In this document: positions 1 through 3,000 of the stretch, in pieces
Position numbering within the stretch: position 1 is the stretch's first letter
Layout of the letters: each line of letters opens with the position of its first letter
Virus record (IMG/VR): IMGVR_UViG_2534682295_000019
Reading direction: 5' to 3' (one strand)
Length of the DNA: 3,941 nt
Source: a virus
Lineage: Duplodnaviria > Heunggongvirae > Uroviricota > Caudoviricetes
Made by a program: the position numbers

Positions 1-3000
1 TCAGTTCCCCAGGCGCTCCATCAAAAACACAACCAGGCAGTAAACACCCACAACAGCAATAACAGCCAGAGCGCCTTCCATTACCAGTGAAATATCATCC
101 GACATATTCCCTCCCTTGGTGTGAATCCCGGCGAACGTTTTTACCCCCACCGACAAATAACATATACTAGAAAAGCAATAGCTATAGCAACGCCTGCAAA
201 TGCATCTGGCCGGCTCATTGGTTCTCCCCCTGTGTCGCTTCTACTGCGATCTGACTGGCGTATTCGTTAATGGTAACGATAAGTTCTTGCTCGGCCTCAT
301 CCAGACAACTACCGATACCTCGCCTGTCCACTTCAGAAGCATCGAAATCTGCACGAAGCCTGGCGACCTTCAGGATTGCGGACAACACCTCATCAGGGAT
401 TGCCGGAGAGTTGGTTGACGTTTCCGAGATTATCCGAAAATTATTGGTTGACGAACCCTTATTTTCCCGAAAGTTTCCAGCCTGAAGCATGGCGGCGCGG
501 TGACACCAGATAATCCAGCCAAGCGCCATATCCCATACCATGTAATCTCTATCGCCATTTTTTGCTCTGCGGCGATCTACAGATTCTCCGAAACGCTTCT
601 CCATAAATAATTCATAGGCTGCTCGTTCATCCGATACTGCTGCCAGTGATGCCAGCGCAATCCGTGCCAGCTCTTCCGCTTCTTCTGCTGGAAGCACAAC
701 GTTGCTACCCGGTCCGTATGTTTCGCGCCAATGCTGGATTGTCAGCAGTCGATCTTTGGTAATAGTGGTCATAGCTATTTCACCTTAATCTCAACATTTC
801 GCAGCTTTAGCTCTACTGGCATGTCTGACTTTCCTGTTAATGCTAATGCGAGATTTTCTGGAGTAATGAGAGCAGTTATTGTTTTCCCCATCGCCAGACG
901 AATAATCATTCGTATTTCGCGATCGTCACATGCTCCTGGTCGAACAATTGATATTTGTCCGTTCATCTCACTCTCCTTTGATGCGAATGCCAGCGACGCG
1001 TAATGCGTGTTCTAGGTCAATCAGGTAAAGCCAACTGCCATTTTCTTTAGGTATCATGACATGTCGCTCATCTGCATTTATCGGGTGTCCATATCGAAGG
1101 TCGTAGCGAGTCGGTAATTGAACTTCCCGCGCTTCCAGTTCAGCAATACGCTTGCTCCCATCAGAGATAACGCCTTCGTAATACTCACGCTGCTCGTTGA
1201 GTTGTGATTTTGCTTCTTCCAGTCCATCCAGCAAATCAGCGATAATATCCGCTTCCCGATGACGGATGTGACGCTTAAACGCAGCAAGAGCCGCATCACA
1301 ATCCCGTTCAGCATTTGGGCTGTCCGGGGTAGCCTGATACCACGCCAGCGTCGATTGATAGTTTTGTGCTGCCTCACGCAGTGCCTGATAGTCAATCTTG
1401 CCCACTGGCTGCCTCCTTTGCCGGGATTTCTAACTTTTGAGTGGTTGTATCAAATTCAAACAACTTAACCACGTCATCAAACAGGACATAATCACCATCA
1501 GGATCTTCAGTCATATCAGCGCCACAATCCTGACCGCACGAGTCGCAACCTCCCATATCAAGCTCGTATCGCTTCAGGTTCGCGATATTTGATAAATTCA
1601 GCGCCAGTATAGCCAGATCATTAACCTCGTCTGCGATATACCCTGCACCATGTCCATACATTTCAATGCGGGATATGATTTCTTCTACACGTTGTTTTGT
1701 GATCGTCATTTTTCTCTTCACTCCGATATACAAGGATTACTACACCCCCTCTGCTGATTGCGCGAGCTGGATCCCCTGGTTCCATGCCGTCAATACCGAA
1801 GGCTTCGAAAAATGCATCTATTGCCTTTTGGCGTTGCTCCTGCTTACGGCGTTTATTCCATTTTTTCATGAACAACAGTGACAGCCATCGTCCGCTGCAG
1901 AACATGATGTAGAAATAACCAAGGAGCGCTAGGCCGGTGTTCAGGGCTGTATCGATCGTTATCGTGGTGTTGATGTTCACTTCACACCTCTCTGTTTGTT
2001 GATAAGTTCAATATCCTGCTGGCAACTGGCGCAAGCTCTGCATCCACGAACAGCCAGGCGTCGCCGCTCATCTATCGGATCGCCACACTCGCAACAATGA
2101 GTAGCAGATGGGGCATTACTATCGGATTTGTATTTTTGCAGGGAGAGATTGCGCTGCAATTCTTCGATTTCAGCGGCGTTGTCGATGATATCTGCCATTT
2201 TCCTTTCCTTCAGGCATGAAAAAAGGAGCCGAAGCTCCTTTGGTTTTAGAATTCGAATTGCCTTGCCCGCAGGCTTTTCAGCATTGGTCTGGCCCGCTGA
2301 ACTACGAAACTCGACTGGTCAAGCCGTGCCGCCTCTCTCAGTAGCACATCTCTGTTCTTCGTCACCATGTAGATGGTCTCAAACGCAATGTCATACAGCT
2401 TGTTCGTGTATGAGGAGTTCAGCTCTTTCATGATCGGATACAGGTGTTTGCTGAGGTCCTGGGCTTTTTCCATCCAGAGTTGCATGTAGCAGAGGAGGAT
2501 GATTTCCTCGTCTGTGAATTGTTGCTGTGGTTCTGCTTGTGCCGACTGCATGTTGCGAAGTTTCTTTTCGCACTCGATGAAGTATCTGCGTATCTGTCGG
2601 CCTTTTTCGTTACGCTCTACCATCGCCGTTTCTTTGGCTGTATCGAGGGTAAGGTGGTAGTCTTTTTTCCCTCGCCCATAACCTATTTCCCGTTTCTGGG
2701 AAATAGCTATATAGTCCTGATTTTCAACGAATCCGTACTCTTCAATACGTTCTGTAATCCACGATGCAAAGCGTTTACCTACTCCAAGAAAAGTATGTAA
2801 ATCACGGGCATTAACGAGAAGAGTGGTTTCGTTGGCGATAGTGCCGTTGAATACGGGGATGAGTTGACTGGTCATGATGACCTCCTTATTTGTTTAGTTT
2901 ATAACCGCCAGTTAGTAGCTGGCGGTCGGGTGTCAACTGAGCCAAATAAGAAGCTCTGGGCATATTCCCCTTGCGGGTGTTGTATTACGCCTCTCCACCC

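Follow-up and report, generated by a model that had tools for sequence, protein, structure and literature searches.

A predicted Rho-independent terminator as the 3' boundary of a portable antirepressor cassette in Shiga toxin phages

The hairpin behind the antirepressor gene ant in the 3,941-nt stretch of phage DNA analysed here (the window) is probably a Rho-independent terminator that bounds a portable ant cassette, with the downstream module of small genes being reached mainly by N-modified RNA polymerase on circular DNA. The window represents the attR end of a Stx prophage of the 933W/Sp5 type, with wrbA as its insertion site. The relevant genes are all encoded on the minus strand, and so are the features described below unless stated otherwise. 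A terminator without a downstream promoter at the end of a prophage is no anomaly, it is the expected signature of a cassette in an antiterminated lambdoid operon, and nothing about this arrangement is unusual among lambdoid phages. The stakes of the finding itself are small, and the co-varying RNA leader in front of this Stx-phage ant gene could matter more.

The ant gene (2246..2875), which corresponds to ECs_1251 / L0142, codes for a 209-amino-acid protein of the antirepressor family, with an AntA N-terminal domain and a P22_AR_C domain. The hairpin (2219..2241) begins 4 nt beyond its stop codon (TAA, 2248-2246) and is composed of AAAGGAGC (2241-2234), a UUCG loop (2233-2230), GCUCCUUU (2229-2222), and UUU (2221-2219). 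The U run is 6 nt long (2224-2219), and its first three residues pair with the AAA of the stem. Within the 8-bp stem, the G+C-rich core measures 5 bp with four G-C pairs and is capped by a cUUCGg tetraloop. The isolated hairpin folds with -10.9 to -11.5 kcal/mol (z = -3.9 compared to shuffled sequences), and the fold of a 71-nt fragment that includes the flanks was unremarkable (z = -0.99). Sites with a perfect stem of at least 5 bp, at least four G-C pairs and a subsequent T6 occurred by chance only 0.001 times per dinucleotide-shuffled window, both strands included. A terminator scan of the window did not list 2219..2241 because it counted U's only past the full 8-bp stem. The first-pass annotation, which reported a hairpin with a UUCG loop and a U tract directly after ant, was right about the anatomy. 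Its description of the terminator as strong was an overstatement, since a G+C core of 5 bp was present and the folding energy is typical for an intrinsic terminator of E. coli. With a G+C stem and short loop, a 3' U run, and a co-oriented position at the end of a gene, the element at 2241-2219 is by its sequence a genuine Rho-independent terminator, from which we infer termination activity.

The same DNA can also fold as RNA of the plus strand (AAAGGAGC-CGAA-GCUCCUUU, then GGUUUUAG), with equal stability (-11.1 kcal/mol, z -2.5) and with a U-rich stretch behind the hairpin. It might therefore be a two-way barrier that keeps antisense transcription of late or rightward origin out of ant and attR. 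We consider this quite unlikely: the U run on the plus strand is interrupted (UUUGGUUUU), the window contains no converging plus-strand gene or promoter-like site, and late transcription in lambdoid phages is Q-antiterminated and would ignore the hairpin.

The terminator is the 3' edge of a promoter-to-terminator cassette with the order Pant, terminated leader, sRNA-Xcc1 element, ant, and terminator. The same cassette was found in at least five other lambdoid contexts, located in the nin region or in the exo-xis arm, and it was always co-oriented with an early operon. In POCJ13 and 75/02, it lies upstream of ninB...Q, so that rightward transcription must cross the cassette to reach Q. The exo-xis arm is its location in phage 86, WGPS6, and F451, and in Nil2 it is found upstream of roi, with an analogous CCCAGC-UUCG-GCUGGG+U hairpin. 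The 24-nt hairpin was identical in every context, although the 3' coding part of ant was only 80-88% identical. BLAST homology ended at query position 182, which is the last U (window position 2219), and the identity profile against the other contexts goes up at the -35 hexamer and down past the U run, so in Stx phage annotation the ant cassette is now bounded from -35 hexamer to U run. Among 83 exact occurrences of the hairpin in IMG/VR, 78 were located directly 3' of an Ant-like ORF (50-100% protein identity), and the sequences after the hairpin were of at least six different kinds. The G+C content did not mark the cassette as foreign. Of note, the ant gene described in the 24B_1 / d_ant literature is a different one, situated downstream of R (PMC4426718), and the ant gene of phi24B has been placed before the qut site, downstream of pR, and not at the att end (PMC3064807).

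That mosaic joints coincide exactly with the end of the hairpin, and that the hairpin is 100% identical compared to 80% for the flanking coding sequence, would also be expected if it mainly served as a 'linker' for recombination among lambdoid phages or stabilised the 3' end of ant mRNA, with termination being incidental. A hairpin with the same stem in front of lambda orf73 could even have supplied the short homology for insertion. However, the hairpin has all sequence features of an intrinsic terminator, and the antB cassette of Nil2, which has a different 3' half, ends in an unlike sequence that is built in the same way (A tract, G+C stem, UUCG loop, U run), which argues for selection on function and not on one sequence. 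Moreover, a role as boundary and termination are compatible with each other. We therefore regard a mere linker or stabiliser as highly improbable.

The att core GTTTCAA (3413..3419, no strand assigned) forms the attR junction, with phage DNA to its left and host wrbA' to its right. The 5' fragment of host wrbA (3400..3462, MAKVLVLYYSMYGHIET...) reads toward the prophage. Its fusion ORF stops at 3402-3400, and the piece is annotated in EDL933 as 'amino terminal fragment of WrbA'. Four TTTGGGGCA repeats, arranged in two 25-nt units (3238..3293, no strand assigned), are candidate integrase arm-type sites. In 933W as well as in NC_004913, an Stx1 phage, xis and int share their strand with ant, and the int stop codon is 22 nt away from the att core, thus leftward transcripts leaving int cross attP into ant. 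In the circular genome, xis-int-attP-ant-orf73 occupy a single strand throughout, and the terminator is co-oriented within the leftward (pL) transcription unit. The module is accessible to pL only after circularisation, upon infection or excision, and derepression alone is insufficient. Both Pant and the host wrbA promoter are directed toward the module, and for each of them further hairpins intervene. Between attP and Pant, there is a long hairpin with 22-nt arms followed by UUUUCU (3166..3212; -27.9 kcal/mol, z -5.9), a candidate counterpart of lambda sib/tI, the retroregulation element located beyond attP. As in lambda, it is a long and very stable hairpin with U's, approximately 200 nt past the att core, which is downstream of int in the circle and split from int in the prophage.

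The first gene of the module (1977..2198) encodes a TraR/DksA zinc-finger protein of 73 amino acids that is 71% identical to lambda orf73. Its ATG is at 2198-2196, preceded by the Shine-Dalgarno sequence AAGGAAAGGA (2210-2201), and it is co-oriented with ant at a distance of 47 nt. The start of the following DUF4752 gene (1663..1980) overlaps the preceding stop codon by 4 nt, and an Ead/Ea22-like gene (968..1405) belongs to the same co-oriented and closely packed module. These genes are paralogues of the exo-xis genes of the lambda pL operon. They can be annotated as an additional copy of the exo-xis module, and its expression is predicted to require a circular genome. The exo-xis region, home of lambda orf73, is transcribed from pL, and plasmid-borne copies or deletion of this region affect lysogenisation and Stx prophage induction (PMC3824215). 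In front of orf73, both lambda and region IV of the same Stx phage carry a GGAGC-UACAG-GCUCC-U6 hairpin. In lambda, this hairpin is presumably the classical tL3, and lambda pL transcripts enter the b region. The lambda hairpin resembles the one described here in its GGAGC/GCUCC stem with U6 just upstream of an orf73-type gene, and in being co-oriented inside the leftward early operon without an intervening promoter. The two differ in the loop (UACAG in lambda and UUCG here) and in the spacing to the ATG (52 nt and 20 nt, respectively). Furthermore, the present hairpin travels with ant and not with orf73, and it lies beyond attP, so that its connection to pL requires circular DNA.

Pant (TTGACA-18 nt-CATACT, 3094..3123) is the best sigma-70 match of this strand in the window (12.07 bits). 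Both its -35 and its -10 hexamer were retained by 39 of the 41 unique leaders, which had spacers of three unrelated kinds, and its counterpart in phage Nil2 is annotated as 'promoter by homology'. Inspection by eye revealed no LexA-box-like sequence at Pant. The first-pass annotation had also stated that there is no space for a promoter between terminator and module, which proved correct, as the last U and the next ATG are separated by just 20 nt. It had concluded that the module needs either read-through, for example from the int side across attP, or a promoter within ant. The former fits the architecture, with int and xis being co-oriented with ant in 933W and NC_004913 as it had predicted, whereas for the latter a sigma-70 weight-matrix scan inside ant found nothing promoter-like, with a best score of 6.07 bits versus a median best of 9.13 bits in shuffled sequences. 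That a promoter is 'missing' simply reflects the insertion of the cassette into an operon. A cryptic promoter that drives the module independently, overlapping the hairpin or the start of the orf73 homologue, or situated in the last part of ant, might be sought in the weak match CTGAAG-17-TATCAT (2213-2185). However, its score of 9.4 bits is at chance level (median best in shuffles 9.1), and transcripts would start inside the orf73 homologue, downstream of its ATG, while the best score within ant is even below chance. In addition, the shortage of space recurs elsewhere, the next start codon in other contexts often being 16-35 nt past the U run. We regard a cryptic promoter as very unlikely.

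The explanation that we favor is that early operons of lambdoid phages have received the cassette, in each case in their own direction of transcription, and that these operons would be read by N-antiterminated polymerase, as in lambda, which we assume for these phages by analogy. N and nutL are located outside the window. In the present phage, the cassette would have come to lie at the distal end of the leftward (pL) operon, immediately past attP, and in front of exo-xis-type accessory genes (the orf73/TraR homologue, DUF4752, Ea22-like, and others) that appear to have no promoter of their own. In the lysogen, the terminator would stop both Pant transcripts and leakage from the host wrbA promoter short of the module. 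On circular DNA, after infection or excision, N-modified polymerase arriving from pL via xis, int, and attP would ignore the hairpins.

One public data set, the supplement of an RNA-seq study of EDL933, bears on expression of these genes and is ambiguous with regard to the first-pass proposal that the module is induction-specific. In uninduced cells, the presumed module genes Z1500 and Z1501, assigned to Z numbers from gene order, had 27-59 reads versus a low count of 37 for ant, without an obvious step-down across the terminator, and spontaneous induction could explain these counts. Upon antibiotic induction, Z1501 went up 34-fold and ant 4-fold, and Z1500 went down to 0 reads, a pattern unlike the prediction of simple read-through from upstream of ant. 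The stronger induction of Z1501 compared to ant would be in line with a cryptic promoter, but this signal is confounded, since Z1501 carries 461 nt with 95% identity to a strongly induced exo-xis paralogue and cross-mapping is therefore likely. In one condition, wrbA' reads were up 7-fold, a rise not seen in ant or Z1501, which speaks for the favored explanation.

The similar read counts of ant and the presumed module genes in uninduced EDL933 could also mean that the terminator is leaky and functions as an attenuator, with ant and the module forming one Pant operon, and the module being on whenever ant is, lysogens included. Intrinsic terminators with a 5-bp G+C core are seldom complete, and the co-oriented ant and module genes are merely 47 nt apart. 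This is nevertheless unlikely: the cassette together with its hairpin is also found before unrelated genes (ninB, roi, methyltransferase, IbrA), thus ant and module are not a conserved functional unit, Pant transcripts already face a conserved leader terminator, and the module genes are paralogues of pL-operon genes.

The bounded cassette can be compared with two known arrangements. Morons, in the sense of Juhala and Hendrix, are extra genes with their own promoter and terminator between the genes of a phage operon. The ant cassette has its own promoter, judged by sequence, a terminator at the 3' edge of the homology, and varied neighbouring genes. Like morons, it is a block of homology sharply edged, here at the -35 hexamer and the terminator U run, that is present or absent among relatives and occupies several insertion sites. 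It differs from morons in that its cargo is a regulator (an antirepressor) and not a lysogenic-conversion gene, and in its elaborate RNA leader and its G+C content, which is not outstanding. In the P22 immI region, Berget, Poteete and Sauer reportedly described in 1983 the order Pant-arc-ant-terminator-gene 9, with the tailspike gene 9 being expressed via antiterminated late read-through. There too, ant is closed by a terminator, and a promoterless downstream gene relies on terminator-resistant polymerase from far upstream. In P22 the antiterminator is of the gp23/Q type and the operon is late, whereas here it would be of the N type and the operon early-left; moreover, arc and mnt repressors are missing here, and regulation appears to be RNA-based.

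The leader RNA between Pant and ant contains an sRNA-Xcc1 (RF02221) element (2916..3004), which matched the full length of the model (1-87) with 69.1 bits versus a gathering score of 53. It was the sole match in an Rfam search of the window at E <= 1, without C4, c4-a1b1, AsxR, or IsrK. The element was located approximately 40 nt upstream of ant in every copy examined. It reached 64-80 bits at seven related loci, and its structure was supported. The second hairpin of the element has a loop (UUCUUAUUUG, 2952-2943) that is complementary to two identical sites. Site 1 (AACAAAUAAG, 3074..3083) lies behind Pant, and site 2 (2881..2894) contains the same AACAAAUAAG (2894-2885), overlapping the ant Shine-Dalgarno sequence AAGGAGG (2887-2881). 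Site 1 is followed by the leader terminator (3040..3067), which is composed of CCGCA (3067-3063) and UGCGG (3051-3047) around an 11-nt loop, then C and U6 (3045-3040), and the L004/L008 type carries a compensatory allele of it, CCAAC/GUUGG. The Xcc1 element is followed by a hairpin with the core GCCAG/CUGGC and without a U run (2903..2927; -15.5 kcal/mol, z -5.2), which also showed compensatory changes. Among the alleles, there were 13 loop types (specificities), and the loop co-varied with both sites. Pairing of the loop with site 1 came to 7.5 nt for the same allele and 4.7 nt across alleles, for site 2 these values were 7.2 and 4.3 nt, and the identity between site 1 and site 2 was 8.8 nt within an allele versus 5.0 nt across alleles.

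These features are reminiscent of the immI region of P1 and P7, in which icd-ant is under the control of the c4 antisense RNA, whose targets are present in two copies, a1/b1 upstream and a2/b2 downstream. In both cases, a structured RNA is encoded in the ant leader, with a loop complementary to a downstream ribosome binding site and to an upstream copy, co-varying by allele. The differences are that there is no Rfam C4 or c4-a1b1 match here, that there is a single specificity loop here and two in P1/P7, and that ant follows directly here, without icd. A tentative reading, to which we give slightly less than an even chance, is that Xcc1 is the core of a c4-like allele-specific switch in ant-type leaders and not a free-standing trans-acting sRNA, that the terminator closes off an autonomous 'immI-type' module under RNA control, and that the orf73/Ea22 module is on only after excision. 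According to the same reading, the variable loop would recognise both site 1 behind the promoter and the identical site 2 on the ribosome binding site, with at least 13 specificities in Stx and lambdoid phages. The Xcc1 leader suggests how ant might stay silent in lysogens of Shiga toxin phages, and the orphan Rfam family sRNA-Xcc1 would gain a testable function. Among 69 Xcc1 loci of other bacteria, a canonical terminator was present in 2, a frequency not above that of random windows. After the closing stem, there is a conserved RCC(A/C), which is no more than suggestive of RNase P processing. Also part of the tentative reading is that the same leader, across Proteobacteria and beyond, precedes Rha, Bro-N, KilA-N, ORF6N, P22-Ant, and SymE-type genes, as well as many small cassette ORFs.

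The phage genes of the window all lie on the minus strand. Among them, ant (2875-2246, with AntA and P22_AR_C domains) ends in the stop codon TAA (2248-2246), which is followed by a hairpin with the stem AAAGGAGC (2241-2234) and GCUCCUUU (2229-2222), a UUCG loop, and three further U's that complete a U run of six. On the same strand, the next start codon (ATG at 2198) comes 20 nt beyond the last U, with AAGGAAAGGA in front of it. It opens a packed, co-oriented series consisting of a TraR/DksA zinc-finger gene, a DUF4752 gene, an unknown ORF, an Ead/Ea22-like gene, and two more. 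The hairpin folds at approximately -11 kcal/mol (z -3.9), and 0.001 sites of such quality are expected per shuffled window. The first-pass annotation had described this structure correctly, but calling it a strong terminator is not warranted, since its G+C core comprises only 5 bp.

A sensitive search was carried out with the 3' end of ant and the intergenic region as query. It brought up ant alleles whose coding parts are just 80-88% identical, and all alignments ended at query position 182, corresponding to window position 2219, the last U. At those loci the final 24 nt, CAAAGGAGCTTCGGCTCCTTTTTT, are identical, after which unrelated DNA follows: ninB in the nin region, upstream of Q, in the Shigella phages POCJ13 and 75/02, a small ORF starting 16 nt on in phage 86 and WGPS6, a methyltransferase gene in F451, and IbrA in PhiR5_2. 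Of 83 exact copies of the hairpin in IMG/VR, 78 come directly after an ORF for an Ant-like protein (50-100% identical), and the DNA beyond the copies represents at least six different contexts. When sliding identity was plotted along the cassette against four other contexts, it went up at the -35 hexamer of the predicted ant promoter (~3123) and dropped past the U run. The antB cassette of Nil2, which encodes a different C-terminal half, has the same promoter, annotated 'by homology' by its depositors, and ends in AAACCCAGC-UUCG-GCUGGGUUU plus U's, another sequence of like design, with roi starting ~35 nt on. Because the upstream and downstream edges are both kept across contexts, the hairpin is, judged by sequence conservation, predicted to be the terminator that closes a mobile ant cassette, which extends from its own promoter to this terminator in the classical 'moron' layout.

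Every ant copy shares the same upstream elements in a fixed order: promoter, leader hairpin with U6, sRNA-Xcc1 (RF02221) element, a further hairpin, and Shine-Dalgarno sequence. The promoter conforms to TTGAC(A/G)-N17/18-(C/T)ATA(C/T)T, with conserved hexamers and three unrelated spacers, and the copy in the window (Pant, 3123-3094) gave the top minus-strand score with a sigma-70 weight matrix (12.07 bits). The terminator-like leader hairpin (3067-3040, minus strand) has an 11-nt loop with a conserved CCCG, is followed by C and U6, and occurs in compensatory alleles, CCGCA/UGCGG, as in the window, versus CCAAC/GUUGG. The Xcc1 elements score 64-80 bits, and the next hairpin co-varies as well. 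Some phages carry two ant cassettes in tandem, one ant being truncated, and each cassette has its own Xcc1 element (1368-1457 and 1908-1993 in locus L004, and 300-388 and 837-922 in locus L008, both with the other leader allele).

In an alignment of 22 distinct leaders (A2), three short segments co-vary, forming 13 'specificities'. The apical loop of the second Xcc1 hairpin (2952-2943, minus strand) is the reverse complement of two identical minus-strand sites, of which site 1 (3083-3074) lies just past the Pant transcription start, and site 2 (2894-2885) abuts and overlaps the ant Shine-Dalgarno sequence. The loop matched sites 1 and 2 over 7.5 and 7.2 nt within alleles versus 4.7 and 4.3 nt across alleles, and the two sites shared 8.8 nt with each other versus 5.0 nt across alleles. 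The overall fold is supported, with 80% of cells paired versus ~40% when partners were slid, and 66 double-change cells versus 31 in shuffles. This scheme of one loop and two sites has the same logic as the c4 antisense RNA of P1/P7 with its a1/b1 and a2/b2 sites; the Rfam C4 model gave no match to the leader when the window was searched. The leader hairpin is located ~20 nt past the predicted Pant start and would yield a leader RNA of ~50 nt carrying site 1, and its loop, CACCCGAU, is also a match to the 3' strand of the stem that closes Xcc1. We consider the Xcc1 leader the part worth pursuing.

A scan of bacterial genomes for the Xcc1 core returned more than 120 loci from many phyla, with Xanthomonadales, Pasteurellaceae, Neisseria, Desulfovibrio, Azospirillum, and several MAG lineages among loci L096-L175. 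A Shine-Dalgarno-preceded ORF begins 80-99 nt past the core in 60 of 70 loci. The majority of these ORFs had no Pfam match, and the matches obtained were mostly Rha, P22 Ant, Bro-N, ORF6N, and KilA-N, together with two SymE toxins; Xcc1 had earlier been noted upstream of an ORF6N gene in an APSE phage paper. At nearly all scanned loci the loop is complementary to an upstream site, and a match of at least 7 nt between the loop and the pre-ATG region was found in 28% of loci, compared to 3% in cross-pairings. In xanthomonads, the loop region contains CCUCC, which is complementary to the Shine-Dalgarno sequence. A canonical terminator past the cargo gene was present at just 2 of 69 Xcc1 loci in bacterial genomes and is not general, indicating that the terminator belongs to the cassettes of enterobacterial phages.

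The first-pass annotation had also argued that no promoter fits behind the ant terminator, and this was borne out: besides the 20 nt between U run and ATG, the best sigma-70 score from the ant start to the next ATG was only 6.07, under the median best score of 9.13 in shuffled sequence. A cryptic promoter is one rival to insulation with read-through; a weak site at 2213-2185 scores at chance level, and its start would fall within the orf73 homologue. The cassette points the same way as an early operon (pR/nin or pL/exo-xis) in every context, and in nin-region phages it lies upstream of Q, so that rightward transcription must traverse it to reach Q. The promoter is missing because the cassette was inserted into an operon, which in the present phage is the leftward one. 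In circular 933W and the Stx1 phage NC_004913, exo, the exo-xis genes, xis, and int share the strand of ant, and the int stop codon lies 22 nt from the att core, the orientation that the first-pass annotation had proposed to look for.

The first gene past the terminator is 71% identical to lambda orf73 over all 73 residues, and the module is a second copy of the exo-xis genes (repeat 'regions II and IV' in the Stx1 phage record). The exo-xis region has been described as pL-transcribed (PMC3824215). In lambda (L093 1433-1456, lambda ~30667-30689) and in region IV of the Stx phage (L001 ~13820-13860), a GGAGC-UACAG-GCUCC-U6 hairpin with the same stem as the ant terminator lies between orf61 and orf73, with no recognised promoter between hairpin and orf73. 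Thus, a terminator before an orf73-type gene is normal for this operon. Lambda N overrides such terminators in the operon, and the lambda hairpin may be the classical tL3. The orf61-orf73 hairpin may have been the short homology where the ant cassette joined the module; that the ant terminator hairpin serves as a recombination linker is another rival.

We propose that the hairpin would stop ordinary polymerase, insulating the module from Pant and host read-in, and that pL-derived, N-modified polymerase would pass it. The latter would arrive only once attL and attR have been joined, i.e. after infection or excision, so that module expression would be gated by excision and not by induction alone, which agrees with the read-through first suggested and sharpens it. 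Transcripts from Pant encounter the leader terminator first and then the ant terminator, and for those from the host wrbA promoter a very stable hairpin (3212-3166) is an additional obstacle. A further rival sees the ant terminator hairpin as a two-way barrier. At the RNA level the read-through interpretation is still hypothetical, though compatible with every architectural test run. We regard the arrangement as a further example of a well-known kind, in which an intrinsic terminator marks a moron boundary within an antiterminated lambdoid operon.

The remaining rival is a leaky operon. According to an RNA-seq supplement, ant (Z1503) and the presumed module genes Z1501 and Z1500, assigned from gene order, have similar, low counts in uninduced EDL933. 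With inducing antibiotics, ant rose 4-fold and Z1501 34-fold, and Z1500 went to zero. However, 461 nt within Z1501 are 95% identical to a strongly induced exo-xis paralogue (L001 6547-7006, in the Ea22-like gene behind ant, versus 13125-13585), and because of this repeat short reads can be mapped to the wrong copy when expression is studied in these phages. The wrbA' fragment was transcribed as well, with a 7-fold rise in one condition without a rise of ant or Z1501. These counts are weak transcript evidence and speak neither for nor against the read-through model.

The window is a mosaic. Positions 1706-3941 are 99.9% identical to the right end of Sp5 (E. coli O157:H7 Sakai), VT2-Sakai, and many 933W-type Stx phages; this identity stops at ~1706, within the 3' part of the DUF4752 gene, and the best match of positions 1-1705 to other prophages is ~94%. 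In the E. coli collection, no genome covered 80% of the window. The att core GTTTCAA (3413-3419) has ~540 nt of non-coding phage DNA and then ant to its left, and to its right a 5' fragment of host wrbA, pointing toward the prophage, and then ymdF. The first 18 wrbA codons (through Met18) run into the prophage end, giving a fusion ORF (3400-3462, minus strand) with its stop at 3402-3400, and the host wrbA promoter (fragment and upstream to ~3600) is directed into the prophage end. Candidate arm-type binding sites for integrase lie between the att core and the long hairpin in the form of four TTTGGGGCA repeats (3238-3293), which make up two 25-nt units 31 nt apart. The long hairpin (3166-3212, minus strand) has 22-nt arms that are 86% complementary (-27.9 kcal/mol, z -5.9), followed by UUUUCU, and resembles lambda sib/tI in form and position; it lies ~200 nt past the att core, on the side where int transcripts arrive in the circular genome. 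At the right edge, a ymdF-like ORF (MANHRGGSGNFAEDRERASEAGKKGGKSSHGKSDN, 3835-3941), named general stress protein in RefSeq, appears shorter than its K-12 counterpart, by what could be one internal repeat.
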